Under the pieces are notes generated by a model that was given only the letters and a program-made list of their open reading frames with translations, had not been told where the DNA came from and did no database searches. A stretch of 63,759 nt of DNA, counting the filler, from Stramenopiles sp. TOSAG23-3 (Eukaryota): NCBI GenBank assembly GCA_900128585.1. It is 10 parts of 10 records of this genome, joined end to end, with 100 filler letters (N's around TTAATTAATTAA, not from the genome) between each part and the next. Parts side by side here need not be neighbours in the genome. Positions count along the whole stretch, not along the records: positions 47,749 to 57,160 come from LT642921.1; 9 more parts are not named here. The stretch is one strand, 5' to 3'. Made by a program: the position numbers and the translations under genes. Shown here piece by piece: positions 9,573 through 60,022 of this stretch (its first letter is position 1; every line of letters begins with the position of its first letter).

Positions 9573-9741
9573 GTGTCGAAAAATACAACAATAAAAATAA
9601 TTGCTGATACGAACGAAACGGATTGTTCTATGGCTCGCCATGATCAAAATAGAAAGCTTGTGTTCGTGCCCCTAAATTCAGTTCATGACATGTCGAAAGT
9701 TGTTGTCGGGTGAAACATTCACAATGCACAAAAGTACAGCA

Positions 9742-12700
9742 ATGTTCGCCAAATACATTGTCCTCGTGTATTGTTTGCTCGCGGGCGCGGCTGCCTCCCA
9801 TTTTCGCTTTGGCAGCCTCTCGTGGTCGCGCGATACTTCTAGTCCTGGGTATACAATAAAATTAAAAGTACACTTTGCGTACCGAAGGGGGTTCTTCCGC
9901 CCTCAGCGGAATGTTGGCGACGAATTTTATGGGGGGAGAATCAAATGGGGAGATGGAAAGTCCAGCACATGCGGGCCGTTGAAAGTCAATCCCGGTGGAG
10001 TTTACACCGCTGACTCGGCGGCCGACGAATGGACGGACGCTACGGGTGAAATGACGCACACGTACTCTCAGGATTTCATCGACAAAAACCTTGCCGACTG
10101 GGAAATTTATCTTTCCAGCTGCTGCAGGATTTCAACTTTGATGAAAAACAAAAACTCGGGGTACAAAGTCTATACCGTAGTGCCCGCCCTGGAGTTTTTA
10201 AACAACAAAGCAGGCCCGAGTATGAACGTTTTCCCGCTCCTTACCATACCTATCCAGAAAGGGATTGTTACGCAAGAGATTGCTGCATCGGATCCCTACG
10301 GCGCAGACAATTTGACATTTGCGTGGGCGTCCAAGAAATATGCGTGCGGGTGCACGACGTGTTCATGTGCTCTGCCAAACACTTATAAAGGGTCTCTGGC
10401 GATAAACGCATCCACGGGGGCGCTGTCATGGGACACGGACGCATTAGGAAAGAGTGATGTCGGCACGTATCCAGTCCAAGTGAAAGTCACGAACAGCAAG
10501 GGGAGTGTATCTGTCGTTGATTTTATTATTAACTTAATAGACAGTTCTCCAAAGTACTTTTGCGCGCTTACTGGCACACGGTGCGATAAGGATTTTGGGT
10601 GCGGAACGCGCTCAGTGGTAACCAAAAAAACCGTTTCGACATGGCATTACTCGGACAACAAGAAGTATCAAAACTTGTATTTGGCCAGTCCAATACTCGA
10701 TGTACGACTGCTCCAAAAGCGAGGGGTCGTGAAATCCTTACCAGGCAAGAATTGGGGGTTCACTTCAAAGTCCATATGGACTAGCGGAAAATTTCGTGGA
10801 AAGTTTGAGGTCAAGTACGGCAAAAACGATACTGCGCATGATTTAACGCTTGTCAAGAAAGGCAAGATTTGTTTTTTCAGAGGCCTACGATACAAACGTG
10901 TTCCCAGTGTTTGCAGGATCCAGTTTATGGGCGTATACCGTGACAAACAAACTCGAGCCATACCAGGGGGCATGGACCGAGTACGACCAAACACGGACGA
11001 AAACCGGAAAAAGAAGCTTGAGGCTTTTATCCAAGAGCTCTCGAAACGGGGCGAAAAGGTCGGTTACTACGCCATCCAATACGGCAACCAAGTGTTTAAA
11101 ACCGTTGGCGACCAAATGAACCTTGATTACGAAAAGTACGGCCTAGTAGATGCGCAAAAATCAAGCGGCAGGTTTTCAGAAAACTCTCTCGGTTTATCGA
11201 TTGACGGCTGCGTCGGCGCCGTAAACGTAGCCGGGGGCTCCTGGGAGAATGCAGTATACCGTATTACGCTGGGCGGGGCTCCGCTGTACAGGCGCACAAA
11301 ATACATTGAGATCCACAACCGATACTACTTTAACTCAAAGCGAAAAATTGAGTTCGATAAGATGAGCATTGTCGATGGCAACGATACGAAGGTGTCTGTG
11401 TCTTCCGATGCTACCGTTTCGTGCAGTGGAACTTGTCCCACTGGAATTAAAGCTGCTGCTTTAGCCGCGCTGGATCCATCTTCTGTTACAGAAGGTCCTC
11501 GGTCGACGAAGGGGAAAAGTGTCACCCTAACGGTGACTTTAAAGGATACCCTTGTCGTGAAGAAGATTGAATTCTCAGAAGTGCCAAAAAGCATGTACAG
11601 AACGTACGTTCAGCTGTACGATTCGGAGCATAGTTTGATCCACACAAAGGTAATAAGGTACCGGGGGAGTGGCAAAAAGAATCAACCCTTGACCTTTGCA
11701 ACAACAAAGACTGTCGGCAAGTACGTCGAAGGAAACGCAATCGATTGCCACAATCAACTCAAGGCAGCCAAAACTCCAGCGCCATTTATGCAGATGATAG
11801 GGAGATATTGTTATGTTCCGTATTACAACAAGACGTACGTAGAAGGTGACATGCCGGACCTGTTCTGTAACCAGTACGGCGCAAAGTGGTACACATGGTC
11901 GATGTTGGACTTATATATGCGGAAGGGGGCCAACAACGAATGCGTGAAGGACGCGTCTCCAACGTTTGAAGGTGTTCCACAGAGCTTAATAAGAAAAAAC
12001 GAAGGCGATATTTTGGAGTTTGAAATAAATGTGACCGACGTCAATACTCTTACCTCCGTTAGTCTGATGGGATCAGACATTCCTACAGGCGCCAATTTTC
12101 GACCACACCCAAAACACATCAGCCGTTCGTTTCAAAATGGTCGGTGTGTTTTACAAAACGACAAATACGATGTCTCGTCGGGTGTGTACCAATTGGACAC
12201 TCTTTCAAATGGACTTGGCGATTCTAGGCTAGAGGAATGTCTAGCAAAATGCAAGAACTATACGATTCACGGAGACCCCACTGGCTGTCAAATAGTGTAT
12301 AACAAAAAACGCAACGATGGCTGTTTTGTTCACACAAAGCCAGTGTCGCATAGCAAAGGGGACACGGAGTACACCAAATGCGCGATCATACTCGAGAACT
12401 CGAAAATGAGTCCCGTGTTCGATGCCGGTGGAATTGGAAAGATTTCGGGGACCTTTTCGTGGGCGATCCCCCAAGGATCTGTGGGGGCGTACAACATCAT
12501 GCTGGAGGCGCGAAGCGGTCTATCCGATGAAATGCCTGTCTATCGATCTTTAAAGATTCTTGTAACGCAGATCAACGCGCCCCCAACCGATATAGTGGCG
12601 AGTCCAGCGGGGGTACTGTACGTACACGAGCATGCTGTACCAGGAACTCGCGTTGCATCTCTTACCACAGTTGATGTAAACGCGGGGGACACGCACGAAT

Positions 12701-15700
12701 ACGTACTTTCGGACAACGCAAACGGAAAGTTTGATATCACGTCGAACATATTACGCGTCGGGCAGCAAACTATTGATTTTGAAAGTTTACAGACGACAAC
12801 ACTTGAAGTAAAGGTAAGAGCCAGTGACGGAAAGGGAGGAAACATCACTAAAATATTTAAAATTCAAATCGTTGATGTTAACGAGTCTCCCACTGATATT
12901 TTGTTGAGCAACACTACCATTCCTGAAAATGCTCCAAAAGGAACTCTTGTGGGGTTATTGTCTGCCGTTGACCCAGACAGGCATCTATACAATTGGTGGA
13001 AGCGTGACTTTTACATAGAAACTCGGGGAGCCATGCACTTGTGGTTGAAAATTGAAGGCAACAGACTCATACAAAACGTAAACGCTTTCGACTTTGAACG
13101 TGTGAAGGAATTATCCGTATTTGTAAAAGTAGTAGACTCGGGGGGGCTTGTCGTTGTCAAAAAAAGTTACAGTGAACATTCTCGATGTGAACGAGCCACC
13201 AACAGCTATTCTTATCGGGGGGGCGATTCAAATTTTGTCCGCTGAATACGGCACAAATTGTTTGCCAGAATCACACTACTGCAATGCAAGTAATTCTAAC
13301 TGTCAATGTCTACGTCCAATGTGTATGGACCTAAAATTGAAATGCAACGGAAGAAGCTATTGTGACTACAATATCACAAATGCTCCAGCGTACAAGAAAG
13401 AGACCCATGCGGACGGTTGCAAAAATGATTATTTTGTTATTTATCGATGCGGTTCTACGGGGCATGAACAAACGTTGCACATGACAGGAAATCAGATGGC
13501 GGCGGGAACTGTGACAATATCTTGCACCACCCATGGAACCATCGCAGAGAATTCGGCAGCGGGGGCTGTTGTTGCCAATCTATCGGCAGTTGATCCTGAC
13601 GTGGACCAGACGTTCCAATTCAGCATTGTGTCAAAAGAGATGTCAAACTATGCTTTCATGCTCGAAGCCAATGCTCTTGTGACAAATTCAACGGAACCGC
13701 TGAACTATGAATTGAACCGGGCGCTTCTTGTAGATATTCTTGTCGTGGACTCGGGAGTGCCTGCCCTATCGTACCAACAGTCCGTTTTGGTAAATATTGA
13801 AAACGTGCAAGAAGCCCCTCTATTGAACCCCGACTCATTTTCAGTATTGGAACAAAGCCTTGTAGGGACAATTGTAGGGACTGTGAAGGCGACTGCCGAC
13901 TCGGCATACTCCGAAGGAATTAAATTCTCTATTGTTGGTGGTTCCCAATCCGATTATTTTGGAATCCACTCGTGCTCTGGGGTATTGTTTGTGAAGCGCC
14001 GTGTACCATACCAAAATGACATAGGGTCCCACACGATTACCGTTCAAGCGGAAACTGAGAAGCCAGTAACTGCCACAATCACAATTAATGTCAACAGACC
14101 AAATCAGGCGCCAGTCGTGCCACTAGTAGACGTAAAAGTTGCGGTTCGTGAAAATGTAAAGCAAGGCTTCTCCGTCGTTGCCTTGCCCCTGTACGCAAGC
14201 GATCCCGATGGTGATGATATGACGTTTACTTTACTGGAAGGAAACGAGGAAAATCTATTTTACATTGAAAATTTGCACAGCAATAATTTGACAATGTCAT
14301 CAAATAGACTCAATTTCGAAGCGAAGGGCACCCATCGTTTAGCCGTTCGTGTTTCTGATACGGCCGGGTTATTTTCTATATTCATAGTAGAAATTGAAGT
14401 AATCGACCAAAACGATCCCCCCTATTTACGAGATGGTTACTCTCGCATTTCTGAAAACGCTGCCTTTGGGCATAATGTCGGCAAATTGGAAGTAGTTGAC
14501 GAGGACACTAGAAACCAACAGTTTACGTTTCATATTCTGTCTGGAAACGACGGGGATGCTTTCAGGATCAATTCTGCCACGGGCGAATTGACGGTGAATG
14601 ATCCGAATACTCTTGATTTTGAATCGGACCGTCGAGTTTATGCAATTGTTGTAAGTGCCAGTGATCATTCCAATGCATTTGGGGGAAACAGTGGTCATGT
14701 ACGGTCATTTTCGCTCGTAAACATATCAGGTAGCGTTGGCGGCAACGCTACGCTGCGCAAAGCCGCTAAATTACCGCTTGAAGAATCATTACCAACCAGT
14801 GGAACCCAGATAGCTACTGGGAGAATAATAAATAACCAAATAGTCATTCATTTCACAGAGGCATTGACAAGTCGGGGGGCTTACCCGCATATTGATGATT
14901 TTACAGTATTGGTGGAAATGAAAGTAGCTGCAATTGACAGCGTTGCTATAGACGCCACTGATAACCGGAAACTTGTTCTAAGTATGCAGACTGGGGTTAG
15001 TCTTGGGGCCGGCGACAAGCATGTTGCTGTTCACTACATGCATTTTGGAGCAAACCAAACCAGCAATGCGGCAACAATTCACGTTGCTGTGGAAGATGCG
15101 AACGATGCCCCAGATTTAAAACTTTCTAACGTCAGTTTTTTGGTGTCAGAAAGTGCAGTTCCCCAGCAGTATTTTTCTGATCCTCTGCTTTTGCACACAT
15201 TTGACCAGGACGAGCGAACTATGTTTTCTTATATGCTTGGAAATACAACAGGGGGTGAAGCCAATATTTTTTATATTAACCCGACTGATGGTAGATTGGG
15301 AACATTTGGGGGCTACCACCAACTTGATTACGAGTCAAAGGCAACATACAATTTGATAGTTCGTGTTGAAGACAACAACGGTTTATCTGCCGAAGCAGCT
15401 ATAGTTGTTCAAGTAGTAGACGTGAATGAAGAGCCAGAATTGCCTCACATGATAAATAGATACGTTTCTGAAGGAGAAGCGGCTGGGTCCCATGCAACCG
15501 TTGACACATCTGGTGTGTATATTGATGGGGCAGAAGTTGAAAATCAGTTCTGTGGATCTGACGAAGACGGGGGGCAAAACGGCTTGCTTAATATATCTCT
15601 TACGGATACAATTGACGGTAAATTTATTCTCTCCAAGTCGAATTTAAACATGTCGCTGTTTTGTTATTTCATAAATATAACTGAAAAACTGGACTTTGAG

Positions 15701-18700
15701 GATAGTGCATTTCCACCACTTCAGCATTTTTATGAGCCAACGATAGAGGCGACAGATGGGGGTCAACCCAGGTTGTTAGAGACCGTATCAGCGCGCATTA
15801 ATGTTGTTAATAAAAATGAGCCCCCTTTATTTCCCCCCGGCCCTTTAGCAATTAACTTGCCTAGTAACACCCCGGTTAATTCGGAGTTCGGCCCGGTTCT
15901 CTTTGCAACCGATCCAGACATGCCGGATACAATAAAATACACGCTCGATTCAGACGTCTATGCATTAAGAAATATATCGAAGGGGAAGAACGGGGCAAGT
16001 CTGGTATTAAAATCGGGCAGTGTAAGCGGAAGCTATAACTTGAAAATATACGCAAATGATACGCTAGGGTCATATGGTACCCTTGATGTTGTTATAACAA
16101 TTATCAACACAAACAATGCACCAAATGTATCATCTGATACATTTATGATAGAAGAAAATATTGCTAGTGGGGCCTTTATCGGTTCTGTGCAAAGTGTGGA
16201 TTATAATGGGGATCGTATGGCATTCGCTATCAGCAGTGGAAACGAAGAAAAATTATTTAGCATAGAACCTTCCTCTGGCAACATAAAATACGCCCCCAGC
16301 GGCTTGCAAACTATAGACTTCGAACGTTCTACTACATATTCATTGATGGTACAGGTCACGGATGACAATGAAAGTCCTCTACATTCATATGGGGTTATCA
16401 CTATTGAAGTTTTAAATGTTAACGAGGCACCTTACATTAAAGGGGCACAGTTGTATGAAAAAGAGGGGTTTCCAAAAGGTTGCCTGCACACTGTCGGCGC
16501 GGCAGACGTTGACAAAAACGACAAGCTCCGGTTCAGTATCCGTGCGCCTCCTAGCACACTAGCTATGTCTACAACAAACTCATTACCAGGATACAACTCC
16601 AATGGAACAAAATTTAAAAGCGAGCACGTCCAAACCGTATCGTCAGCTAACGAGGCAGCATATAATGTGCCTCTTCGTATTGACGCTGTTACAGGTAAGA
16701 TTTACGCCACAGAACCATTCAATTTCGAAGTGCGTCAAGAGCATAGATTCGTTGTATCCGTCAGAGATACGGAAGGGGCCTCTGCAAGCGCATATTTCGT
16801 CCTTTTTGTATCCGATGTGAATGAACGACCAAGGCTGCTTCCTCAGACATTTTATGTTATGGAGAATAGCCCTGCGGGCACAACAATTGGGCATGCATTG
16901 TCATACGAAGATGAGGACAACGGACAACTGCACAATTTTGAAATTTTGTCGGGCAATACAAACAACCTCTTTACGCTGAGCAAATCGGGGGTCTTAAGTG
17001 TGGAATCAGGTGAACAGCTTGATTTTGAAAATTCGAAATTTTATTCTCTAAAAATTAGAATCACTGACTCGGGCCTCAAGATGCAAAATCGTTTGTCTAG
17101 TTCCGCAGAGGTAAAAATAAATGTACTTGATGAAAATGAACCACCAGTGTTTCCAGAACGTGTATCCCATATTAGGTACGTAAGCGAAAGATCACAACCA
17201 GGGGAATTGGTTGGGAACCCAGTAATTGCAGCGGATCCTGACCAATCCCAGAGTTTAGTATATTCGTTAAGGCAGTCAAATCTTGCCGCATCGGACCAAT
17301 GCTCGTGCTCGGGCATGTCACCATGTAAAGAAAAGGATGGTACACCCCCGTCTTGTATTGCTAAGCGGTTTTCCAAAGAATCAGAATGGCGTTGTCCTTC
17401 AGATACGATCGATTGCTCCGGCGGTCGACCATCTAGCGTGGAACTGGATAAACTAAGGGATATAAAATGGAAGATTTTATTTCGTCAAACGTATGAAACA
17501 CTGTGCAATAAACCTCTTGGTGTTAACCTAGTGAGTGACAAAAATAATTCTATGCTGGTTTTGGGCGGAATTTTGAACCCTGTTTCATCTGGTATTTTGG
17601 TTGCAGTGATCGAAGACGGGACCTTCTCGATTGAGACGTTTGCTATTTTTGATATATATGGGGACGATTCTGAAAATAAGAACCTTGTAAAGTTCTTGAG
17701 GAGTATTGAAAATGGTAAAATAGTATTCATTGTTTCGAACTCTCGCCCGTTTGAATATGACAATGTTCCGCGCCACATAAAACGGAGAGTGGTAAAACAA
17801 ATAAAAAAAGTGGGGGGCTCAGACAGTTTTCGGTACCACCACTTGGACAATCACCATGCGTTTGTACTGGCGGGTAGAAAAGGTGCAAATGCGGGTTCTG
17901 TTCCACAACGTTTGGCGTATAAAAGCAACGTAGAGTTATCCTGCGCCGACATGGACAGCTTTACCATTAGCTTTAACGATCGAGGAAATTCTGTCCTTGA
18001 TACAACCAAAACATATAGTTACCACTACCCAAATTTTCAGGTCGATTTGAAGGGCTGGACGCACAGCAGAAAAAAATACGATGGATTTTCGTTAGAAAAA
18101 GGAGGGGCGGCGTCGGCGACCGTTCGCGGGCTTGTGCCGCACTCCATTTACACGTACGATATCTACCAGCGCTCCGATACCACAGAATCAGGCAAACGTT
18201 TTGTTTATGTGAATGGCAAATCTGTGACGACCGAGCGGCCATCTTCAAACAATCTTCCGTCTGCTTCCGGTGATGCTAGGTCGAATTCAGAGGGGGAAAT
18301 CTCTTTTTTGTTCTCTCATGAAAATTTTTACGTCTCCTTATCTGCACTGAAGATCAAAGCGAGGGAAGCCGACCCCTCATCGTTTTTGAGAGTAAACCCA
18401 GGAAACCCCAGTGCCGCCTTGTATTCAATACTGGACCACATTGAAAACTATCGAAATTTAGATGGGACTTTTATTTTCAAGTTGGTATGGCCAAAAATGA
18501 AATTTGATGCTGCAACATCGACGAATAGTATAGTTTGGAGGCAGACAACAAACCCTATAAACGCCGATGAACTTCTGTGTGAGATTGAGTTTCTTGGTAT
18601 CTGGAAAGACAACAAAGATAGTCGAGTATTCCCTGGGGACGGCAAGCGCGTTACAACCGATATGGGAAGTACAATTGCTAATTTTGTGAATTCCGTACGA

Positions 18701-19040
18701 GATGATGGTGCTGTCTCTGGGGTCTTTGCGATTCAGGATGGGGATCAAGTCTGGACAAGCATCGACGAAAATTTGAGTTATAAAATCCACGGAAAAATAT
18801 CTAACCAAAAAGCTACTGGACCGCGCTCAAACAACAACCTGGGAATAACGACAAGCAACTGTCAAGGGACCGTAAACGTGGCGGGTGGTTATCTTCAAAA
18901 TGCTATCTACAAAGTATCTATTGGCGCTGCCGTGAAGGGACTGGAAGTATCGAACCAACAGTTCAAAAATTTTCAAGGCCTCAGTAGAACCCGGCGGGCT
19001 GGTAATTATGTAAATCCAACTGGCCGGCAGCGAACATATT
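9742..19040 (+). CDS. Giant secreted/surface cadherin-repeat adhesin, split by one apparent +1 frameshift at about 13140-13165 and truncated at the contig end
   Basis: Signal peptide then SHFRFGSLSW; many cadherin motifs (DFE, DxNExP, DPD, ENS); ORFs 9685-13245 and 13148-19096 overlap, and the join restores DSGG..KKVTVNILDVNEPP. Confidence 0.88.
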
Positions 19041-19236
19041 NNNNNNNNNNNNNNNNNNNNNNNNNNNNNNNNNNNNNNNNNNNNTTAATTAATTAANNNN
19101 NNNNNNNNNNNNNNNNNNNNNNNNNNNNNNNNNNNNNNNNTACCGAAAAAAACAAAACAAAAAGTAGCAGGTGTACCTCCTATATATTTAAAATTTACGG
19201 AAGATTTACATTTTATATAGTCTATGATAATGAGGA

Positions 19237-20220: not shown

Positions 20221-20892
20221 TCAAATAGTCACATTGGCCATCATTCTCGGCTTTCCAGCCATGCAACGGGTTCTGCACTGATCATACTCGTCCCATGTTA
20301 GCCTTCGCCCCTCGAGACTTGATTCGATGGATTCAAGCGACCGTTCACCTCGCAAGCGTTGTGTATCGAACCCTCTCATTCGCGGTAAAACGTCGCAACC
20401 TTCTTCATCAGAAAGCATGCCTTTGCACCTGCAGGAAAACACGCACACACCCTGTGTTTCCCACCACGCACCGGGAAGCACCCCCGCGGCCTTTAGCGCC
20501 TTTGTTGCTTGCCTTACGTAGCGTTTGCCTTTTATGCCTACGCCACAGATATCGCGGCATCGATCAAAGTTATCGCTTTTTACCAAACACGACGGTTTGG
20601 GACAACCTGGCTCCCTTTCTTGTTGGTCATAGAAAAAAGGTGACCACCTAGTGCAACGGTCGCAGCTTTGCTCACAATTCCTCCTGCAACCTGCCGCGGT
20701 CGCTAGGAAGCCGTCGGGCGGTACGCAGCCATTTCTACTAGAAATGCAATTTTCGTAGCACGAAATTTTAATTTCGCCAGTCCCGACGTAGGGTTTTCTG
20801 AATCCAGCATTACATCTTGCTGGAGTTCGAGAGGCGGTCGCACTGATAGTACAAAGGCCTGCCACCAATAGTAAAGTAGGAATGGATCTCAT
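20221..20892 (-). CDS. Secreted cysteine-rich protein
   Basis: Signal peptide MRSIPTLLLVAGLCTISATAS; many Cys; RLRGERSL and GRRL motifs near the C-terminus. Confidence 0.75.
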   Translation of the reverse strand: MRSIPTLLLVAGLCTISATASRTPARCNAGFRKPYVGTGEIKISCYENCISSRNGCVPPDGFLATAAGCRRNCEQSCDRCTRWSPFFYDQQEREPGCPKPSCLVKSDNFDRCRDICGVGIKGKRYVRQATKALKAAGVLPGAWWETQGVCVFSCRCKGMLSDEEGCDVLPRMRGFDTQRLRGERSLESIESSLEGRRLTWDEYDQCRTRCMAGKPRMMANVTI

Positions 20893-47524: not shown

Positions 47525-47579
47525 AGAAGAAGAAGAAGAAGAAGAAGAAGAAGAAGAAGAAGAAGAAGAAAAGAGTCGA

Positions 47580-47615
<36 letters not shown>

Positions 47616-47648
47616 GTCGAAAGAAAGAAAGAAAGAAAGAGTCGAAAG
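47525..47648 (+). repeat. (GAA)n/(GAAA)n tract at contig end
   Basis: Read directly from the sequence. Confidence 0.9.
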
Positions 47649-47748
47649 NNNNNNNNNNNNNNNNNNNNNNNNNNNNNNNNNNNNNNNNNNNNTTAATTAA
47701 TTAANNNNNNNNNNNNNNNNNNNNNNNNNNNNNNNNNNNNNNNNNNNN

Positions 47749-48180
47749 ATATTTAATTATTTCTTTTCGGTTTTTTTCCCTCCGTTCGTTGAGTATGACA
47801 AGGTGGCGCTTGGTTGTGAGGCGCATACGCAGAGACAAAAGCGAGAAAGCTAATGCAAAGAATGAAACCCCGACACAGACTAGACTGAGTACCAAGGTGG
47901 AAATGCTAGCATCTACGAGCGCGTAACCGCTGCCAACATAAATAGAAATACTTGAAAATACAATTCCGAAACTCGAGCGAATCAAGAAAGTGCCGCAAGG
48001 CCCGTATGACTTCACGCAACAAATGTTACTGAGTGCAAAATAGTCTTTTGCACTGGTCAGTAAGACGCCCAAGGAGATGAAAGTGCTGATTGACACTAAA
48101 ATCATCACTCCGTCGCGCAGGACTTTTTGCTCACTCGCGGCGTACGCGATGTAACGTGCATCAGTCGTGTCGGTTGCCAT
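47749..48180 (-). CDS. Multi-pass membrane protein, 3' truncated
   Basis: Three hydrophobic helices; the ORF runs into the linker. Confidence 0.55.
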
Positions 48181-48883
48181 CACGAGTTAAAATCTACAAA
48201 ATGCTCCCTTGGCATACACAATTATATTCAACACCGAATCGTTGGTGCGCTACATCAAAGCGTACGCCCTAATCGCACTCTTTGTACGTTACACCCGGCA
48301 GACGAACTTGTTTTCGCCCGGCCCCGAATTTTTGTAAGTTATAAAGAACAACAAATTCTCGCCCGTGCATACAAATGAAACAATGTTTTTGGAAAGCGTG
48401 TGTGTTTTTCTTGAATTTCTAGATTGCGGATTGGAAAGTGTAAAGAAGCATGAAGATTCATTGACCTGATGAGGCAAGTGACACATCATGTGCATGCATC
48501 GTATAGTTAAGTAGCTCGTTCGTCGTCGTTTATATTATTTTTATTAAATAAATTTTTTCAAATAATAAAAATATAATTCACTCATCTCATCATCATCTGA
48601 AGAAGAAGATGATGTAAGGAAGGAGAGGAAAAAAGGAGGAGTTAATAAATAGCACTGCCGTCGGTATACTTTACTTACTCGCACTTTTATCAATGAAAAA
48701 TACAAGGGAATACCTTTGAAAGGGACCAGGGAACGGTGCCATCAATGGCGGGGGAGTAAATTTATTATATTATAGGTTTACGAGAGACGAACTTCGTTCT
48801 CACAAGCCAACAACTATTGATCTCTTTAATGTAGACAGCTTCGAGAAAAATGCTTTTGTAAAAGATAACATAGTTAGATTAAT

Positions 48884-49222
48884 TTACTTTTGGGATCCAC
48901 GAAGAAGGGCAGATTCCTTGTGGGCGCAGCAACTGCAAACAGTTTGGGCACAGCAGCCACACTTTGGCGCTTCAACAACGACTGGGGCAACGGTCTTTTC
49001 TTGGCACGGGCATGGCTTTGGCTTCTCGTTTGGGATTTCTTTGACGATGGTCGCTTTCTTCATTTCTTGGGCACATCCGCATGGCTTTTCCGTCGATGCG
49101 ATCGTTTCATTTGTCATGATAACACTAACCATTTTGGGGCAGCCCGTTTCACCTGGGCACTTCAGCCCGTTGGCAGTGACGGCGGCCAACGCAACCAAGG
49201 CAATAAGAAAGTAAGACTTCAT
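48884..49222 (-). CDS. Small secreted Cys-cluster protein
   Basis: Signal peptide MKSYFLIALVALAAVTANG; CxC and CC clusters (KPCGCA, KPCPCQ, KCGCCA, CSCCA); ends LLRGSQK. Confidence 0.75.
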   Translation of the reverse strand: MKSYFLIALVALAAVTANGLKCPGETGCPKMVSVIMTNETIASTEKPCGCAQEMKKATIVKEIPNEKPKPCPCQEKTVAPVVVEAPKCGCCAQTVCSCCAHKESALLRGSQK

Positions 49223-49439
49223 GTTTGATAAAGAAGGTTCAACTATAACTATATTCACGCGTGTATGTATGTGTGTGTTTTTTTTTGTAAAGATATATAT
49301 ATTATGGGATTTACTCGTTGAAACTTGTTGAAACTTCTTTGTTCCTCCTCTGTTAGTCTGTTCGTTCCATCTGTAACAATTAATAGAACCTCGTCTTTCT
49401 TTCGTTCTTCTTTCTTTTATAAATAAATATTATACTATT

Positions 49440-49712
49440 TAACAAAGAGAAGAAGAGAAATATAAAGAAGAGAAGAAGAAGAAGAAGAAGAAGAAGAGAA
49501 GAAGAAAGAAAGAACAGAAAAAAAGAAGAGAAGAATAAAAAAAAAGAAGTTCTATTCTATTACTATTTCTTCTTTCTTTCTTTCTTTCTTTCTTTTACTT
49601 TCTTTCTTTCTTTTACTTTCTTTCTTTTACGTTCTTTTACTTTCTTTCTTTTACTTTCTTTCTTCCTTTCTTTCTTTTACTTTCTTTCTTTTACTTTCTT
49701 TCTTTCTTACTC
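49440..49712. repeat. Polypurine (GAA) tract followed by polypyrimidine (CTTT/CTTTTA) tract
   Basis: Read directly from the sequence. Confidence 0.85.
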
Positions 49713-50279
49713 ATAGCTTCATATGTACATAACAATAGCAATGCCAAACTAATATGGGAATAACATAAAAGAATGAATATATTCTCCCTCCCTCTCTTTT
49801 AATTAATTCTTCGACTTCTCTTTTTCCTTCTTTCTCCTTCTTTCTACTTTCTTTCTTTCCTTTTAATTTATAATTAAGTAGTGTATTAGAATACTACTGT
49901 TATTCCTATGTTTTAAACCGACAAGATGGACCCTATTATATAACTCTATCTTTAGAGAAGAGAGAAGAGAAGAGAGAAGAGAAGAATAGAGAATGAAGAA
50001 TTTAAGAAAAGAAAAAAAGGAAAAAATAACAACCCTATTATTATTAACTTGTTGTTGTTTTATTATTATTATATTATAAAATAAAATATTATTATTTTGA
50101 ATTTCATTTCTTTCTTTTTCTTCTAAATGAAAGATATTGTTAATATATATGTATAGGCAGAAGTAAGTTCGATTGTTGATGGAATGAAAAAAGGAATTTG
50201 AAATTGTTTCAGGACTATATTTAGCAGTAGTGATAGGATTTTAGTTTTTTGTGTTTTTACAGATTAGGAATGAAATAAA

Positions 50280-51314
50280 ATGGCGTCAAAAATAGGACTC
50301 GAAGTTGGCGATACCGTTTCCGTCGCTTCTGCAGATGGGAAAACCCAAAAACGTGCGGTGGTCTCCTGGTTGGATGAGGGGACGGCGGACGTGGTGTATG
50401 AAAAAATAAGCTATGCTCCAATCATATCCTCTGCGAGCTTCGTCGCGGAAGAGGAATCCAAAGTAACTTTTGACCGCATAGTTGGGCAGGCGCCCGTTGA
50501 GGTCGACGAGAGCAAATTCAACCACGACGCCGAAAAACACAAAGCGATAGGCGGCGTACACTTTCGAAACAAGAACTTCGTGGCTGCGTACAACGAGTAC
50601 TTGAAGGCGCTGGGCCTTCTGCAGAGCGGGCCCGTGAGGGCACTGGCTGCAAGATCTGGTTCGGTGGAGGCGAAAACCAAGGTCATAAACTCGATCGTAG
50701 GTGCCAGTGTGTTAGTACAAGTGAAGCGTTCAGGGCCATCGTGCAAGTTCACTTCGGCAACTGTTGCAACCGTTGGCGATAAGACAGCAGACGTGATGTT
50801 CGAGGATGGAGACGCGGAAGAAGACGGGGTTGCTATTGAGCGACTCGTGTTGGTCTCAAGCGACAAGAGCATTGGGCAGCTGCAGTGCAACCTGTACCTG
50901 AACCTTGCGCGGTGCTGCGCCAAATTCAAAGACAATGCAAGTGCGGCATGGTTCGCAACGATTGCCATCTCCCTTGGAAACTATTTCGTAGCCTTGAAGA
51001 AAGCGACCAAGCAGTCGAGCGGTGGCGTGGAAAGCAAAACAGACCTTTCCGCGATGACGATATCACGAGAGACGTGGGTCAAAGCCTTTTACATTCGTGC
51101 AAAGTCCCATTTAACCATGCGCCATTTTAAACAGGCGCGAACGGACGGGAACAAAATACTAAAGTTGGATCCAGACAACAGGGATGCACAAAAGCTGCTG
51201 GACTCGATCAAACCATTGGAAGAGCGGCAGTTCAAAAAGGATAAGAAATTAGTGAAGGAAGTGTGCAAAATGGTCGATGAAGCGATGAGTAAGTCTCCGA
51301 GTAAGAAAAAATGA
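50280..51314 (+). CDS. TPR co-chaperone-like protein with two Tudor/SH3-like repeats; candidate readthrough extension to 51494
   Basis: AEKHKAIGGVHFRNKNFVAAYNEYLKAL, LYLNLARC, KAFYIRAKSHL...ILKLDPDNRDA; duplicated VG..V.V...A.V....TADV.(Y/F)E...EE..V...R(I/L) unit. Confidence 0.85.
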   Translation: MASKIGLEVGDTVSVASADGKTQKRAVVSWLDEGTADVVYEKISYAPIISSASFVAEEESKVTFDRIVGQAPVEVDESKFNHDAEKHKAIGGVHFRNKNFVAAYNEYLKALGLLQSGPVRALAARSGSVEAKTKVINSIVGASVLVQVKRSGPSCKFTSATVATVGDKTADVMFEDGDAEEDGVAIERLVLVSSDKSIGQLQCNLYLNLARCCAKFKDNASAAWFATIAISLGNYFVALKKATKQSSGGVESKTDLSAMTISRETWVKAFYIRAKSHLTMRHFKQARTDGNKILKLDPDNRDAQKLLDSIKPLEERQFKKDKKLVKEVCKMVDEAMSKSPSKKK

Positions 51315-52159
51315 CATGAATCGCCTGAGAGTAGCGTGCGAAGTAGACATACTTCTCAGGCGGCAAAAATTGAAATTGAGGGAACGTCCATGGCGGGTGC
51401 TGGGCAAAGGAACCCGACCTTCTTTTCGTTTTCATTCACTGTTGCGGTTCTGGCCACCGTTTATTATTGGTGGTTTTGGTTGTCGCAAGAATGATAAATT
51501 ATGATCTATGTATTTACATAACTCTATATAATTTGTTTTTTGTATTTACTAAACCTGAAGTTGAAGGAAAAGAAATAAATGTTTCTTTGACGTGCCGGGC
51601 TAATAATAAATCATCAATCAAATTATAAAACTCATTTTTTTGAAATTTACTTTTTGTCCATGTTAGTATTACTGGTAATATATAAATTTGTACAGAAGAA
51701 GAAGAAGGCACGTGCTCCTCCCCTTGTATTTGTATGTTGTTGTTGTTGAAAAAGAAAAAAAGAAACATGTGATGCTCATGGTATGCGCCTGCAAAAAGTT
51801 TGAATTCTTCTTCTTCTTCATTTTCAGGAAGAAAAAAAAAGAAAGAAAGAAGAAGAACAACAACAACAACAACGAGAGAGAGAGAGAAAAAAGATAATAA
51901 TAATAATAATATAGATAGAAGAAGAAAAAGAATCCATTCTTCCTTCAAGGAAAGGAATGGGTTTGATAACCACCCATTTAGATACATAAACGATTTTCAT
52001 GTTTGATAAGCACCCTTTTAGATAAATAAACGATTTTTTTGTTTAAAGATTATGGTATTCGTTTACGTGAGGGTGCATTTCTTTAGAGAACCTTTGTGCA
52101 TGTACGAAAATAATTAGTTGAAGTTTTAATCGACCGACTACGGCGTCTTCAACCTTTTT

Positions 52160-54316
52160 ATGGCACCAGGTTATGACTTGGTTATTGTAGGGGCAGGTGT
52201 TTCTGGGCTGGCCGCTCTTCAATACTTGAAATCCCACATGCTCCTGCCGTTGAAAATCCTTGTTCTTGAAGCCAGGGCGTATGTTGGTGGAAGAGTGAAG
52301 ACCGCACACATCCACAGCCCAGCGGCCGGAGCAACGTACCATGTAGATTTAGGGGCGACGTGGCTGCATGGGGTTGACGGTCATCCGCTGCTAGTGCACA
52401 ACATTGTTGACGAAAAAGATACGCAGGCTGTTTCGCGTCAAAATTTTTGGACCTCGCGTAAGGTCGGAGGGGAAGACGGGAATATAAAATTGTTTACCGT
52501 GGATGGGAGTGAAGTTGTTAGCGGGAATGTGGACAGTCTGATTCACACTGCAATGGATAGGATCAACGCCGCCGCTGAGGATGCCGAGGACGCCCCTGCA
52601 ATTTCCTCTGTTGTTGACGCAGTCCTGAAGGACATGGATCTAGACCAACGGCAAGCATCTATTGTACGCTGGGTTCTAGATTGTCACGGGTTGTGGTTGG
52701 GAGTGTCCCTGGGTACTGTCTCGTGCGAGGATTGGGTAAGCATGGCGAAACCAAATGAATGGGGGGATTACCCTGGGGCGCACAGTATTGTTACTAACAG
52801 TGGGCTAGGTGACCAGATTGTTGCAAAACTGTTAACCGATTCGGACGATGTGCGCTTATCCCATCGCGTAGAATGTATGAAGCAGCGAGGTGAATTGTGT
52901 GAAGTGGAGTACACTGTGGTTGGCGAGGGGGCGATTGGAGGCAACCGTGTGAAAATTGCAAAGTCAAGGTATGTCATTTCAACGATTCCTATAGGAACAC
53001 TAAAAGCGTGCGCAAAAGGCCGCCTGTTTCTCCCCCCCCTTGCTCCTGATAAATTGAAGGCCTTAGGCCGCGTCGAAATGACCCACTATTTAAAGGTTGT
53101 TATGGTGCTGGACCAGAATGAAATGGTGCTCTTGGCGGATCTCCAACGTGTAGGATGGTTCGGGCTAGCATGTGGTAAAGCGGAGAAAGAAGGCAGCCCG
53201 TTTCGAGTCTTTTTCAACTATTTTAAGTATACCAAGCAACCCGTACTTGTCGGCTTTGCTTATGGTGCTGAAGCTCGCGAGCTGGAGCTGAACTGTGCTG
53301 ATGCGGACATCTTTGCGCTTGCAGCAAAGTCCTTGTCTCTTGTTTTTAAAAGGGACTTCGAGTCTTGTGTGGAGACGTATGAAATTACGAAATGGGCAAA
53401 CGATCCCTATTCAATGGGGGCATATCCGCTAGGAGATCCCGAAGACTTCAAGGTGTTAAAGAGACCGCACGGGCGGGTCTATTTTGCGGGAGATGGGATG
53501 ACCGATGCCGCTGACGAAGGAAGTGTTGCGGCAGCATACAACACCGGGGTTGAAGTGGCAAAAGATTTGCTAAGGTTGTTGGATTATTCCAGAGCAAGTT
53601 CGATGATGAAGAGGGGAAAGCATGTCCACGCAAGACTAACAACTGGGGGGGGTGAAGAAAAGCGAAAGCATGCTCATTTTGCAAAGCAGTTGAAACAGCT
53701 GGACATCCGCACGGTCTGTTTTGACATGGATCAATGCGCAGTCCGGCAACACTCGTATGGCCGATTGGAACGGGGTGATATGCTACTAAAATTTGTTGAA
53801 AATGCGACTGAAGATTTTATTGCTATCGTCCCAAAATTGATAGCGTGCGGCGTTAATGTAGCAATTACTACGCACTCCGATGCCCAAGAGTACATTGCAA
53901 ACAACAAGCCTTCGACCAAGTACATAATTGGGACGGACCTGGTCCAAGCAGTTTTGAACCATCACTTTGCCCCCGAGCTAGTTGCAAAGATATTCATATA
54001 TGCTTGGAAAGCAAGGCTTCACAATGATCACCGAACGGAGAATCAGCACAAGAAGAAGCACGTGCGCCTCGCATCTGCCCACTTTAATCACTTACCTAGG
54101 CATTCGATCCTTTTCGACGATTTGGTGAGAAATGTTGACGAGCGTGGAGACGAAGGGTGGATGGCATGGCGTGTGAACCCTTTGAGGGGGTTCTGCATTG
54201 ACACCATTGACTGGAAGGAAGTGCGCGCGTCTTCAAACATAACACTGGGGGGGCGGGAGAATCTACGGTACGATGAAATGAACTTACGATTGGTGATGCC
54301 ATACACTGTCCGATAA
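52160..54316 (+). CDS. Flavin-containing amine oxidase (polyamine oxidase-like) fused to a C-terminal HAD-like domain
   Basis: IVGAGVSGLAA, LEARAYVGGRVKT, DLGATWLHG, WANDPYSMGAY, VYFAGD; then VCFDMDQC, ITTHSD, ILFDDLVRNV. Confidence 0.85.
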   Translation: MAPGYDLVIVGAGVSGLAALQYLKSHMLLPLKILVLEARAYVGGRVKTAHIHSPAAGATYHVDLGATWLHGVDGHPLLVHNIVDEKDTQAVSRQNFWTSRKVGGEDGNIKLFTVDGSEVVSGNVDSLIHTAMDRINAAAEDAEDAPAISSVVDAVLKDMDLDQRQASIVRWVLDCHGLWLGVSLGTVSCEDWVSMAKPNEWGDYPGAHSIVTNSGLGDQIVAKLLTDSDDVRLSHRVECMKQRGELCEVEYTVVGEGAIGGNRVKIAKSRYVISTIPIGTLKACAKGRLFLPPLAPDKLKALGRVEMTHYLKVVMVLDQNEMVLLADLQRVGWFGLACGKAEKEGSPFRVFFNYFKYTKQPVLVGFAYGAEARELELNCADADIFALAAKSLSLVFKRDFESCVETYEITKWANDPYSMGAYPLGDPEDFKVLKRPHGRVYFAGDGMTDAADEGSVAAAYNTGVEVAKDLLRLLDYSRASSMMKRGKHVHARLTTGGGEEKRKHAHFAKQLKQLDIRTVCFDMDQCAVRQHSYGRLERGDMLLKFVENATEDFIAIVPKLIACGVNVAITTHSDAQEYIANNKPSTKYIIGTDLVQAVLNHHFAPELVAKIFIYAWKARLHNDHRTENQHKKKHVRLASAHFNHLPRHSILFDDLVRNVDERGDEGWMAWRVNPLRGFCIDTIDWKEVRASSNITLGGRENLRYDEMNLRLVMPYTVR

Positions 54317-54584
54317 TATTTACGAAAATGTTCGGTGTAAGAGTATATTTTTGTTTTTAAATAATTGTGGTTTTAAAACACTGTATATATGAAGAAGATA
54401 ACTAGTTTAACTACTTGTACCCTTTTGTACTTAATATAACAGCCAATTTTTTGTTTTTATAAATACCTACCCTCGTATTAAGGCCCAATGGAAAAAGTGA
54501 GTGCAGTGCAGTGCCTGGGTACAGAGTAGCGTTTTTTTTGCAGGGCGCTCAGAAGGGTCATCAGATAGGATGATATATTATTCA

Positions 54585-54660
54585 TAATACCAAAAACTAA
54601 ATACAAGTTAATGTGAGACCGTCGTAATACCAAAACTAAATACAAGTTAATGTGAGAACG
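54585..54660 (+). repeat. Tandem duplication of about 40 bp in the TMEM260 3' region
   Basis: TAATACCAAAA(A)CTAAATACAAGTTAATGTGAGA twice. Confidence 0.85.
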
Positions 54661-54671
54661 GCAAAAACAGG

Positions 54672-57128
54672 TCAAGACCGCTTCTTTCGCTTCTTTTTGG
54701 ACTTTTTCTTCTTTGTTTTTTTACTTTTCTTGGGTGCATTTTTTGTCGACTCCCACTCCCCGGTTGATCGCTTCCTGGCCGGTGGGGCGTTCCCCAAGCT
54801 GGCCTGGTTCACCCCCGACAAGTATTCGACGACATTCTTAATTGTAGGATACGCCGGGTCTGACTTTGCGCCGTCCATGGACAAAAACTTTGACCACGTG
54901 TCCAACGTCCGGTAACTCGCATGATTCTTGTAGTCGTCTCCCCCAGGGCGGCCTTCGTACATTTTGTACAGAAATGCTGGGAACGGATATGGGGCCGATG
55001 CCGGGAGCCTTTGTTTGCTCTGGACGATTCTAGAATACGCAATGCCTAGGTTTTTGTACACGCTGGCGGTGACATGGTCTGGATTCTTGCTTTTTACGAA
55101 CAGTTCCAGCTGCGTCGCAACGTGCGCCAGCGCCATCACATTTTCTTCCGAACTCGTGCATATGCTTTCCTTGCAACTGCTGTCCGCAATCATGTCCAAA
55201 ACGTACGTGGCAGTGTCCCCCACATGGTCCCAGTAGTCGATGTGCACTGTCGATTCCCACGTTTCCTCGGTGTATTTGGTAAGGTTGGGCATAGAAGGGA
55301 GTGCCTTGTTGATCACCTTCCAAACATTTGCGTTCATTACGAAGGCTTGCTTTGCCGTTAGCGGCGGCGTCCGATCAAGTTTGCGGAAACGTACCAGCAT
55401 TCCGTACGGCACTTCTTCGTAGTGCTGCTTCAAACTACCCTCCTCGTTGAAACCGACCTTTCCGCCAAGATATATCCCGCCTGGGTACCGGTCTATATTT
55501 GCGTCAAGAAACTCTTTGAAGGAGAAGGCTTCCCCTCGCTTGTACTGCTTGCTGTTCATTCTTGCCAGATAGAACTTTTCTTTCCCGTTGAACACGAAAG
55601 ACATTTTAGGGGCGTACAGAGGCCGTTGCACATGGAACCACTGAAATGTCATCATAGAAAGGTTCAACGTTTCAACGTCTGGTCTTTTCTTTTCGCATAT
55701 TTGCAAATACCGCGACGCGGTCCACTGCTGGTCATAATTTGTCAGGAACAACGAATTCTTCGGGATAGTGTTCAGCAAGGCATTGGCGTAATTTTGCAAG
55801 TACCAATTTTCGCTTTGGTCCATGTTATGGAACCATGATCCGAACTGGAGGGATGCGACCACGACCGTGACTATCGACGAAATGTTGCTCTTGATGAAGC
55901 TCGGGAAGGACGCCGACACGACCGTTGCGAGCGACACGATTCCGATCCCAAAATATGCAAACACGATTAAATTCGGCTGCATCCAAAACCTCGCGTGCAC
56001 ACCAAATAGCAACGGGTTGCTTAGCGGCAAATTAGACAAGGAGTGGAACCCGACTTGGTAGAATACGTACGCCCCCATCAACGCCACGCCGAAAGAGTTT
56101 TTCGGGATGGGCGGTGGGCCTACCGCCGGTGCCTTGATGGCCTTTTTCTTTCCCTTCCTAGACGACGAGGCTGCGGCGGCAGACGCTGGCTTCTCTTCTA
56201 ACCCAGGGTTGCGCAGGCTGTGCACCAAACCAAACAGGGCGGGAAGTGGGCCGAACCCCAAGGACTGGCGATACGTAAAGTCTTTCAAATGGGCCAGCAA
56301 CCGGTCGGCCAACCCTTCGACCTCCCTTCCATCGTTCCCAGAAAACAATTGGAAAGTGCCATAGTCTGCCCGAGTCAAGTGTCGCCAGAAACCTTTCAAG
56401 TTGGAACTGTCTCCCCAGCTTCCTTTCTTCATCGCGTACGTGTCGGACCAGTACAGGAAGATGTACGGTAGCAGACCAACCAAAAACAGGACTGCCAAGG
56501 CCAAGGTCCGCGCGACCGTCACCTTGCCGGAAGCATATTGGGTGTACAGGATCCAACAGACCAACGGTATCTCGTACAAAATTAACGTATGCTGGTTGCA
56601 CATGCCGAGCCCACACACTAGTGCCCCAACGTACATGTAAAAATCCCCGCTGCATGTACCACCTCGCGCCTTGGCCGTGGCGTATTTTGCCGTCAAATTT
56701 AGCACCAGCGATGCGAACAGGTTGTTCAGTGCAAAAACTTCACTCCCGACCGCATACGTCCATACCAACGGGGAAAAGCCGTACATGGCACCGGCCAACA
56801 TTCCCGCCCACGTGTAGTTGATTCCAGGCACGTCTGTTCGAATGTACTGGAACGTCTGGACCATGCTGCATAACAGTGCGCACGCGGCGGCAGTGCATGT
56901 TGCGCAGAAAAAGTTTGCCCGGTAGGCCATGGTACCGTAAGGGATGTAAGTTATCAAGTGCACGACCAGGGTGTACAGAGGATACCCTGGTGGGTGAGCA
57001 GTCCCAAGCTCGCATGCCTCTGCAACAAGTTCACCACTGTCCCCGCCCGGTATGGAGGGCATCAGCGTTTGAGCGTAGCCGTATAATACGACACAAAAGA
57101 CTAGAAACGGGGCAACCCGAGACAACAA
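54672..57128 (-). CDS. TMEM260: TMEM260/DUF2723 family protein O-mannosyltransferase (start may lie slightly upstream, near the contig end)
   Basis: SIPGGDSGELVAEACELGTAHPPGYPLYTL, EVFALNN, GLGMCNQHTLIL, SWGD, DYGTFQL, RFWMQPN; multiple TM helices. Confidence 0.92.
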   Translation of the reverse strand: MLSRVAPFLVFCVVLYGYAQTLMPSIPGGDSGELVAEACELGTAHPPGYPLYTLVVHLITYIPYGTMAYRANFFCATCTAAACALLCSMVQTFQYIRTDVPGINYTWAGMLAGAMYGFSPLVWTYAVGSEVFALNNLFASLVLNLTAKYATAKARGGTCSGDFYMYVGALVCGLGMCNQHTLILYEIPLVCWILYTQYASGKVTVARTLALAVLFLVGLLPYIFLYWSDTYAMKKGSWGDSSNLKGFWRHLTRADYGTFQLFSGNDGREVEGLADRLLAHLKDFTYRQSLGFGPLPALFGLVHSLRNPGLEEKPASAAAASSSRKGKKKAIKAPAVGPPPIPKNSFGVALMGAYVFYQVGFHSLSNLPLSNPLLFGVHARFWMQPNLIVFAYFGIGIVSLATVVSASFPSFIKSNISSIVTVVVASLQFGSWFHNMDQSENWYLQNYANALLNTIPKNSLFLTNYDQQWTASRYLQICEKKRPDVETLNLSMMTFQWFHVQRPLYAPKMSFVFNGKEKFYLARMNSKQYKRGEAFSFKEFLDANIDRYPGGIYLGGKVGFNEEGSLKQHYEEVPYGMLVRFRKLDRTPPLTAKQAFVMNANVWKVINKALPSMPNLTKYTEETWESTVHIDYWDHVGDTATYVLDMIADSSCKESICTSSEENVMALAHVATQLELFVKSKNPDHVTASVYKNLGIAYSRIVQSKQRLPASAPYPFPAFLYKMYEGRPGGDDYKNHASYRTLDTWSKFLSMDGAKSDPAYPTIKNVVEYLSGVNQASLGNAPPARKRSTGEWESTKNAPKKSKKTKKKKSKKKRKKRS

Positions 57129-57260
57129 TGGCTCTGCCGCTGCTCCTAGTTTATGTTGCGNNNNNNNNNNNNNNNNNNNNNNNNNNNNNNNNNNNNNNNN
57201 NNNNTTAATTAATTAANNNNNNNNNNNNNNNNNNNNNNNNNNNNNNNNNNNNNNNNNNNN

Positions 57261-58813: not shown

Positions 58814-58913
58814 NNNNNNNNNNNNNNNNNNNNNNNNNNNNNNNNNNNNNNNNNNNNTTAATTAATTAANNNNNNNNNNNNNNNNNNNNNNNNNNNNNNN
58901 NNNNNNNNNNNNN

Positions 58914-60022
58914 GCTTCTTGCGCTAGCCGTTCCATTTCCTCCTTGTGGTCATCGTGGTCTTGCATAATTGCTCTATTTCTGGCGATTTCTTTCGGATGC
59001 TGACCACGTGCAATTTTTGTAACTTTGTAAGAATGTTTTTTCTTCATTCTTGGTTTCATTTTTTTCAATGGGAGAAGTTTGCCAACCCGGTGCCTACGGT
59101 CGAAAGGTTTTGACACCAACTGTGCCAGGTCAGAAAGTCTGCTCCCTGTTTCGGTAACGTTCAACTGTTTCTTTTTTATTTCTCTTTTCACGGAGTTAGC
59201 CAGAATATCGTACAATTTCTCTTGAGGACCGTGGATATCGAACACCTTCCCGTGCTCATCTACTATATGAAAATATATGTCTCCATGGTGCCCTTCTGCA
59301 ATCTTTTTACACTCCACAAAATGGTTCTGGGCCCGAATTACTTTTATGTACCGCCCAATTGTCCCCACGCCAAACGGTAAGCGGAGGATTCCGCCTCTTT
59401 TGCCTGTTGCTAGTTCGTCTCCCATAATAGAACACGACGGTAAGTAAGTTGATGCTGTGCTTCCAGACGTGTCTGGGCGAGCTGCCTTAGATACATCTAC
59501 ATGCCCGCTCAAAGCTTGTGACATATCGCTCGAGTCTTCCCCGCCAAAGCCTTCATAAGCAGCACGCGCAGGCGAGACTAAACTGGACCCTCCAGAAGGT
59601 GACAATATTACGCTGGATCCATTTGGTGAATATACCTGGGGCATAAACTTGTCAAGTAGTAGAGGCTCTCCAAACGCGGACGACTTAGGTGTTGGAAGCA
59701 AATATTTGCCTTCTTCCGAATTCGACCGAAAAAACCATAAATTTCTGTTTGGAGTGGCTGTCAAAAAACTCAGGAAGTCGGTAAGACTGGCCTTTTGTGT
59801 GCGCTCAAAGAAACCTACAAGCGAGTCACCATTCAATCCCACTAAAACATCGTCAGTGAATATTGTGTTCCTTTCTAATGCATCGCCCTTTAAACCGTTG
59901 ACGACGACATATTTTGAACCGTTAATCTGTTTCACCACTAAGTTCAGGCCAAGCGCTCCTTCCTCAAAACGTTCCCGGACAACGTTACCCCTGGCGATCG
60001 GCCCAGTTTTGGTTTCAGCCAT
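58914..60022 (-). CDS. Hypothetical protein with degenerate N-terminal PDZ-like domain, 3' truncated
   Basis: FEEGALGLNL...YVVVNGL...DDVLVGLNGDSL resembles the PDZ GLG and GD.I..VNG motifs. Confidence 0.6.

Follow-up and report, generated by a model that had tools for sequence, protein, structure and literature searches.

Read-through of a stop codon that reveals a C-terminal sorting signal is already known: a hidden peroxisomal targeting signal (PTS1) is reported to be exposed in this way in fungal PGK and GAPDH and in mammalian LDHB and MDH1 (PMC9549241), and the Drosophila read-through extensions reported by Dunn et al. 2013 (PMC3840789) include eight with predicted transmembrane domains, as well as that of Syx17, which carries a prenylation signal. 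In read-through signals of the alphavirus, furovirus and coltivirus type, UGA-C sites are followed by 3′ stem-loops after spacers of 7–9 nt, with reported read-through gains of up to 10-fold, and the SEPN1 hairpin lies behind a 6-nt spacer (Firth et al. 2011, PMC3159437). Here, we analyze a gene of Stramenopiles sp. TOSAG23-3 (GenBank assembly GCA_900128585.1) found in a stretch of 63,759 nucleotides, named the window, which joins 10 parts of 10 records and in which positions 47,749–57,160 come from LT642921.1. Its 344-codon open reading frame (ORF) encodes a predicted protein with a tetratricopeptide repeat (TPR) domain of co-chaperone type and ends at a UGA, beyond which the same frame continues without a stop for 59 codons and closes with a candidate tail-anchor helix. 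On balance, we lean toward programmed read-through of this UGA, which would yield a major soluble and a minor tail-anchored form of the co-chaperone-like protein.

The locus resembles the PTS1 and Drosophila cases in carrying a C-terminal sorting signal behind a leaky stop, so that one gene could serve two compartments. It differs from them in that the hidden signal, predicted only, would be an ancestral tail-anchor that is constitutive in relatives rather than a newly added short motif. With the viral signals as described in PMC3159437, it shares the UGA-C and a stem (~13 bp here) placed 7 nt past the stop. Unlike them, it belongs to a cellular protist gene, the bases at +5/+6 are AU instead of the viral consensus CUA or CGG, and the predicted stem-loop is a compact one of 41 nt, not an extended structure of ~100–140 nt. 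By these comparisons, the distinctive traits appear to be the ancestral nature of the hidden tail-anchor and the likeness to the viral UGA-C plus stem-loop type. By title and abstract opening, none of the papers listed by a full-text search for stop codon read-through jointly with tail-anchored proteins concerned a tail-anchor made by read-through, and such a case may still be in print.

The features of the locus, each with the data that define it, are as follows.

50280–51311 (+): core coding sequence, 344 residues, with two small five-stranded β-barrels (residues 12–69 and 143–191), a TPR domain of three repeats and, at the C-terminus, a long helix (residues 301–337), as predicted from the ORF, AlphaFold2 and Foldseek
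51303–51311 (+): AAG AAA AAA (Lys-Lys-Lys), the final sense codons, with adenines at −1, −2 and further 5′ of the stop (sequence)
51312–51315 (+): UGA stop with C at +4, tetranucleotide UGAC (sequence; DNA and RNA-library contigs)
51322–51362 (+): predicted RNA hairpin, 7 nt past the UGA (minimum free energy folding)
51315–51491 (+): in-frame 59-codon extension, a 34-residue linker (modelled as disordered) and then a helix (ORF, composition, AlphaFold2)
51417–51482 (+): candidate tail-anchor transmembrane helix, residues 380–401 of the read-through product (hydrophobicity, AlphaFold2, relatives)
51492–51497 (+): tandem terminators TGA TAA ending the extension, with AT-rich DNA beyond (sequence, GC profile)

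The stop codon and its surroundings

The original prediction, made by a model from the sequence alone, had described a Tudor/TPR ORF ending in AAA-TGA-C, and this is borne out by the sequence, the ORF list and the translation: the frame starts at ATG 50280 and terminates at TGA 51312–51314, followed by C at 51315. Its further statements, that the open frame runs on for 59 codons up to TGA-TAA and that coding-like composition then yields to AT-rich DNA, hold equally well. Indeed, the translation of 51315–51491 is exactly the peptide first read there, the second TGA (51492–51494) is the 405th codon and is directly followed by TAA (51495–51497), and the GC content drops from 0.52–0.53 across 51330–51464 to 0.24–0.29 beyond 51465. 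The extension is made up of a 34-residue polar linker, 22 uncharged residues and a final Ser-Gln-Glu. The public predicted protein P0001 (10 member sequences) has the same length as the core and the C-terminus ...SKKK, and is listed as 100% identical, with one residue differing (V/L).

The stretch is partly present in 20 of the 24 listed public runs (16 studies), almost all of them marine or seawater metagenomes. Four of the 24, the DNA run X4 and the RNA libraries X15, X16 and X19, were compared with it. A 752-nt metagenome DNA contig (X4 record 12, 50670–51421) and a metatranscriptome contig (X15 record 3, 51184–51334) both contain the TGA and match the stretch with no differences and no joint, as does a further metatranscriptome contig that spans much of the extension (X15 record 4, 51329–51479); X16 and X19 do not cover the stop region and are uninformative there. 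The length differences of X4 are confined to the DNA 3′ of the extension, with 2 bases omitted at 51522 and one A inserted at 51615. Since the TGA is unchanged in an independent DNA contig and in an RNA-library contig, a base-call error, which the original prediction had kept as an alternative, is excluded. RNA editing of the stop is excluded as well, at least in the single RNA-library contig that covers it. All seven contigs of the three RNA libraries fall inside 50338–51479 while the DNA run reaches both flanks too, which favours transcripts over DNA carry-over.

TGA is an ordinary terminator in the window, as it closes 9 of the 26 longest ORFs that do not overlap, the others ending with TAA (15) or TAG (2). 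A reassigned code with UGA as a sense codon is ruled out by these nine ORFs and by the long ORFs of the window, which run uninterrupted under the standard code. Selenocysteine decoding was rejected likewise, as the 25 Rfam matches obtained for 51000–52200 at E ≤ 10 include no selenocysteine insertion sequence (SECIS) family, and no tRNA gene was found within the window. Apart from the gene studied here, none of the TGA-ended ORFs among the 26 continues into a long open stretch whose GC is coding-like.

The stop context, AAG AAA AAA UGA C, brings together several leak-prone elements, namely UGA itself, a pyrimidine at +4 and adenines at −1 and −2. UGA is reported to be the leakiest stop, UGAC to be one of the tetranucleotides most prone to read-through in yeast, and adenines at both −2 and −1 to give the highest read-through (PMC7764779), in agreement with the earlier view of UGA-C as the leakiest context, to which the two adenines and a hairpin are added here. 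The hairpin (minimum free energy −19.8 kcal/mol) starts 7 nt past the UGA and contains nine perfect pairs (51322–51330 with 51354–51362), four more past a one-base bulge (13 bp) and a small 3-bp apical stem. The 60 nt 3′ of the stop fold to −19.9 kcal/mol, a stability equalled by 3 of 1021 GC-matched coding windows (0.3%) and by 8.4% of all 2767 coding windows, and none of the other post-stop 60-mers (n = 19) falls below −15.8 kcal/mol. The whole 121-nt fold is less striking (z = −1.71), with 13 of 200 shuffles folding as well. A predicted structure so close behind the stop would fit the role of a read-through stimulator.

Protein core, family and C-terminal anchor

In the AlphaFold2 model (pLDDT 88, pTM 0.80), for which an alignment of 45 sequences was used, one five-stranded barrel lies at the N-terminus (residues 12–69) and the other (residues 143–191) is inserted between TPR1 and TPR2. 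The TPR helices and the long helix 301–337 are followed by the linker 341–380, at a pLDDT of ~50, and, in the tail of the read-through product, by a helix 380–403 at a pLDDT of 80–94. Foldseek against the PDB returned 42 matches at E ≤ 0.001, with the TPR domains of FKBP52 and FKBP51 on top and Cns1, Cyp40, AIP, SGT, RPAP3, Sec72, OM64 and PP5 also represented; these matches point to a TPR fold with three repeats, of the kind that binds EEVD peptides. The E values are 1.7e-7 for FKBP52 with MEEVD (1qz2), 4.6e-5 for FKBP38 bound to the Hsp90 MEEVD peptide (5mgx, rank 10) and 5.3e-4 for the TPR domain of OM64 (6q3q). K88, N208 and R273, which may be the carboxylate-clamp positions, are invariant or nearly so in the 45-sequence alignment. 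The 'Tudor' label of the original prediction gained support from the fold, the N-terminal tandem Tudor/Agenet domain of FMRP being matched by Foldseek (E 7.5e-4), but not from Pfam, where no Tudor family was found at E ≤ 0.01 and TPR_2, at 25.6 bits and under the cutoff of 27, is the only match in the protein. The nearest clusters in the Atlas are eukaryotic, most commonly from Chlorophyta and Haptophyta, and are named just 'hypothetical protein'. From the model, the Foldseek matches and these cluster names, the protein appears to belong to an uncharacterised eukaryotic family that joins a TPR domain of the Hsp70/Hsp90 co-chaperone type to two Tudor-like barrels.

FKBP38 (FKBP8) has a C-terminal anchor helix, and plant OM64 is membrane-anchored. 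The protein of the window would share with both a three-repeat TPR fold of the type that binds Hsp90/Hsp70 peptides. It differs in having no FKBP (PPIase) domain and two Tudor-like barrels instead, and its identity to the chains matched by Foldseek is 12–16%. The parallel first drawn with tail-anchored TPR co-chaperones fits this picture, as testified by the top rank of FKBP52/51 and by the presence of peptide-bound FKBP38 among the best matches.

Residues 380–401 of the read-through product are 22 uncharged residues, with a mean Kyte-Doolittle value of 1.40 over a 19-mer that ends five residues from the C-terminus; the longest uncharged run of the extension is 26 residues, and three residues (Ser-Gln-Glu) follow the helix. 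With this single hydrophobic helix near its C-terminus and an N-terminus predicted to form a β-barrel and not a signal sequence, the product has the predicted layout of a tail-anchored protein. In a phmmer search, 203 of 1.84 billion representative proteins reached E ≤ 0.001, the best 150 of them being listed, and a profile search (A1) added P0041 only. A metagenome scan gave two loci (L001 and L002), both sister-clade forms and not close relatives, while scans of viral contigs and genome contigs for relatives found none. C-termini were surveyed in 156 sequences: the proteins listed (P0005 left out), the ORFs of the two loci and the product of read-through. P0048, which looks chimeric after KDKKLV, was ignored. 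A hydrophobic 19-mer (mean ≥ 1.4) lies within the last 45 residues in 56 of the 156, a CaaX-like box ends 12 (P0017, P0021, P0032, P0047, P0061, P0063, P0074, P0077, P0078, P0097, P0140 and P0151) and an [NS]KK(K) end is found in 5, the remaining 83 being other forms, fragments or generic TPR proteins. The two membrane anchors, tail-anchor helix and CaaX-like box, seem to have swapped in the evolution of this TPR family.

In the three outgroup forms nearest to the window protein, namely P0004 (39% identity) and the ORFs of L001 (34%) and L002 (31%), the core, the linker and a terminal helix are carried by one ORF, with no stop in between, and the tails measure 57–70 residues versus 59 in the extension. 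Likeness at the residue level was assessed by shuffling linker and helix separately and, not being significant, was dropped as evidence; the likeness of the extension to these sister tails appears to lie in the architecture.

The age of the stop was approached with a maximum-likelihood tree of the core columns (query residues 80–338), computed by an IQ-TREE quick search under LG+C20+F+G4 with Shimodaira–Hasegawa-like approximate likelihood ratio support (SH-aLRT), on the 48 best-scoring of 106 core-spanning sequences together with P0008 and P0025. The window protein forms a pair with P0002 (SH-aLRT 99; 70% identity), which is joined by P0003 (46% identity) and P0008 (63% identity) at a support of 95, and the resulting clade is sister to the tail-anchored clade of P0004, L002 and L001 (SH-aLRT 96). 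All four members of the window clade end with ...SKK(K); P0025 (43% identity, 83 residues) ends with ...NSKK and is too short to be placed on the tree. Since all clade members end in this way at the same point, the stop probably predates the splits from P0002 and from P0003/P0008, and a single old stop at the core/linker junction would be the simplest reading of these C-termini. A recent nonsense allele, the other alternative of the original prediction, is weakened by this shared end point of P0002, P0003 and P0008 and by the contiguous anchor of the sister clade. We tentatively propose, as possible rather than probable, that an ancestral constitutive tail-anchor was made conditional: a UGA would have been inserted before the anchor in this marine protist clade, both would since have been kept together with an alphavirus-like signal (AA-UGA-C and a close hairpin), and read-through would set the share of membrane-docked versus soluble protein.

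Read-through and the rival explanations

In the proposed mechanism, the UGA would stand between the folded core and the linker with its tail-anchor helix, in a family that is normally fixed to the membrane by its C-terminus. Most ribosomes would terminate there and give the soluble 344-residue protein. A fraction would decode the UGA with a near-cognate tRNA, which, to judge from yeast and mammals, may be that for Trp, Arg or Cys, the tRNAs reported to decode read-through UGA (PMC7764779), and would add the 59 codons, giving a tail-anchored isoform of 404 residues. The leak would be promoted by the UGA-C, by the adenines at −1 and −2 and by the stable hairpin 7 nt downstream, which, judging from the viral signals, may stimulate read-through; the extension would be translated, and its helix is expected from the model to insert into a membrane. 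Every in-silico test that we ran appears to favour read-through. The real stop, the leaky context, the helix and the anchors of the family uphold these parts of the originally predicted soluble and membrane-anchored isoforms, and read-through itself seems to us somewhat probable.

The coding signal of the extension is intermediate. With a codon-usage log-odds of −0.02, it outscores the other five frames; off-frame windows score −0.51 ± 0.27, with 1% as high as the extension, and 637 in-frame coding windows score 0.25 ± 0.17, with 3% as low. All 16 other testable 3′ flanks contain 1–7 in-frame stops per 59 codons, and their GC content ranges over 0.23–0.53, against 0.49 in the extension. Spurious ORFs of 45–90 residues were scanned for a hydrophobic 19-mer that lies no more than 12 residues from the end and is at least as strong as the one seen here (Kyte-Doolittle 1.40); such a 19-mer occurs in 15 of 310 GC-matched cases (4.8%) and in 13 of 60 AT-rich cases. 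Two further post-stop open frames of the window, after 20221–20892 (−) and 58862–60022 (−), are not coding-like, and the second enters an N gap. No match restricted to the extension was found among the best 150 of the 203 phmmer proteins, nor did Pfam give any match in it, and residues 340–404 of the read-through product, compared with a 5.8-billion protein set, gave six word-sharing candidates, none of them at E ≤ 1. Within the limits of this search tool, the protein sets appear to hold no recorded allele with the tail fused to the core.

A number of observations weigh against read-through. The openness of the frame is weak evidence when taken alone, as 14% (498 of 3598) of the 59-codon windows taken off-frame, at matched GC, from the genes of the window are open, and forward frame +1 is open as well, for 71 codons (51289–51504), across the stop and the extension. 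The codon score of the extension lies under that of 97% of true coding windows, with a GC content at third codon positions (GC3) of 0.47 versus 0.60 in the core. The helix is only moderately hydrophobic, at 1.40 versus 2.0–3.3 in several relatives, and the residue likeness of the extension to the tails of P0004, L001 and L002 is not significant (p = 0.52, 0.30 and 0.03, respectively). The hairpin was noticed only after the fact. The RNA-library contigs are single-read-sized, at a depth of 2–2.6, so that some DNA carry-over is possible. Finally, hydrophobic tails encoded in 3′ untranslated regions (3′UTRs) are common, and it is reported that read-through products bearing them are marked for removal in a BAG6-dependent manner (PMC10364623; bioRxiv 10.1101/2022.07.20.500724).

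Several of these points would also suit a relic, in which the UGA genuinely ends translation, only the soluble protein is still made and the 59 codons are an undecayed, untranslated remnant of the ancestral tail-anchor. Such a history would account for a codon score and GC3 below those of the core, for tail residues without significant likeness to relatives and for an openness that, by itself, has p ~0.14; besides, anchorless family members do exist, as illustrated by P0009, which has a basic tail at its end. We nevertheless regard a relic as unlikely, mainly because a tail untranslated since the stop arose should be AT-rich and stop-rich, which that of the window is not. The stop position is common to P0002 (70%) and P0003/P0008 (46–63%), in a clade with an SH-aLRT of 95, which leaves a long time for neutral decay, and yet the tail retains its GC content, an uncharged C-terminal helix that chance gives in 4.8% of cases and a stable hairpin at a position resembling that in known signals (0.3%), unlike the AT-rich, stop-rich other flanks, all 16 of which contain 1–7 in-frame stops. 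The helix and the hairpin, when taken jointly with the open frame and with a tail about as long as those of relatives, make it improbable that we see mere chance features of a GC-richer 3′UTR or a hairpin-driven +1 shift at AAA-AAA-UGA into the open frame 51289–51504, even if 14% of GC-matched off-frame windows are open, GC reaches at least 0.45 in 2 of the 16 other flanks and frame +1 is itself open for 71 codons. The codon score of frame +1 is −0.21 versus −0.02 for the extension, and that frame lacks a family-like end. As a separate observation, frame +1 would be reachable only by a +1 shift at AAA-AAA-UGA.

An anchored form could also arise from a processed mRNA, if a small intron or another RNA-level change removed the stop. 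GT..AG pairs whose spacing is a multiple of three do span it, from GT 51293 to AG ending at 51331, 51334 (42 nt), 51343 or 51346 and from GT 51261 or 51273 to AG ending at 51329 or 51359, and GTAAGT occurs at 51289. The in-frame donors are poor, however (GTCTCC, GTCGAT and GTGTGC), and the GTAAG sites at 51289 and 51301, both phase 1 and read as AGT-AAG (Ser-Lys) codons, have no in-frame acceptor before the helix, just as first noted and now borne out by reading of the sequence. The window genes are long unbroken ORFs and both RNA-library contigs are collinear with the DNA, which makes this route very unlikely. Still more doubtful is a separate synthesis of the tail as a 35-residue membrane micro-protein from the in-frame ATG 51387, by re-initiation or from a transcript of its own, although this ATG precedes the helix and is covered by the RNA-library contigs. 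Eukaryotic ribosomes re-initiate inefficiently once they have translated an ORF of 344 codons, coding-like GC starts at ~51330, ahead of the ATG, the linker plus helix architecture matches the one-piece tails of relatives, and no such small protein turned up in the protein sets searched (for phmmer, the best 150 of 203 matches).

If read-through does operate here, it would add a compact cellular read-through cassette of ~70 nt and, if stop and anchor have indeed been kept together in the clade, would be a cellular and evolutionarily conserved case in which it governs membrane anchoring. A dual location would then be reached without gene duplication or splicing, in an intron-poor protist and with a virus-like UGA-C and hairpin, by a simple evolutionary route from a single location, that is, one nonsense change in a leaky context. 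If the tail is only a relic, the locus would be an ordinary truncated gene.

Other features of the window

The window contains 952 N and shows a sharp contrast between coding regions, at a GC content of 0.5–0.6, and intergenic DNA, which is very AT-rich at 47526–47750, 49440–49720 and 51800–51920, with long simple repeats of the AAG/CTT type and assembly gaps. Two very long ORFs on the plus strand, 9685–13245 (1186 residues) and 13319–19096 (1925 residues), lie 73 nt apart in different frames and may be one giant gene that a frameshift, a short intron or an assembly error has split; inspection of the 13245/13319 boundary for an intron gave no model and no clear GT..AG. Small cysteine-rich ORFs whose hydrophobic N-termini resemble signal sequences are found at 20221–20892 (−) and 48884–49222 (−), the latter without a Pfam family. 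On the minus strand, the 796-residue ORF 54672–57062 has an N-terminal TMEM260-like protein O-mannosyltransferase domain (PF11028, E 9.9e-35) and also ends with TGA-C, followed by merely 11 open codons. Downstream of the read-through candidate, the ORF 52160–54316 (+) encodes a flavin amine oxidase (PF01593, E 8.9e-33, residues 14–471), extended by ~240 C-terminal residues without a Pfam match.

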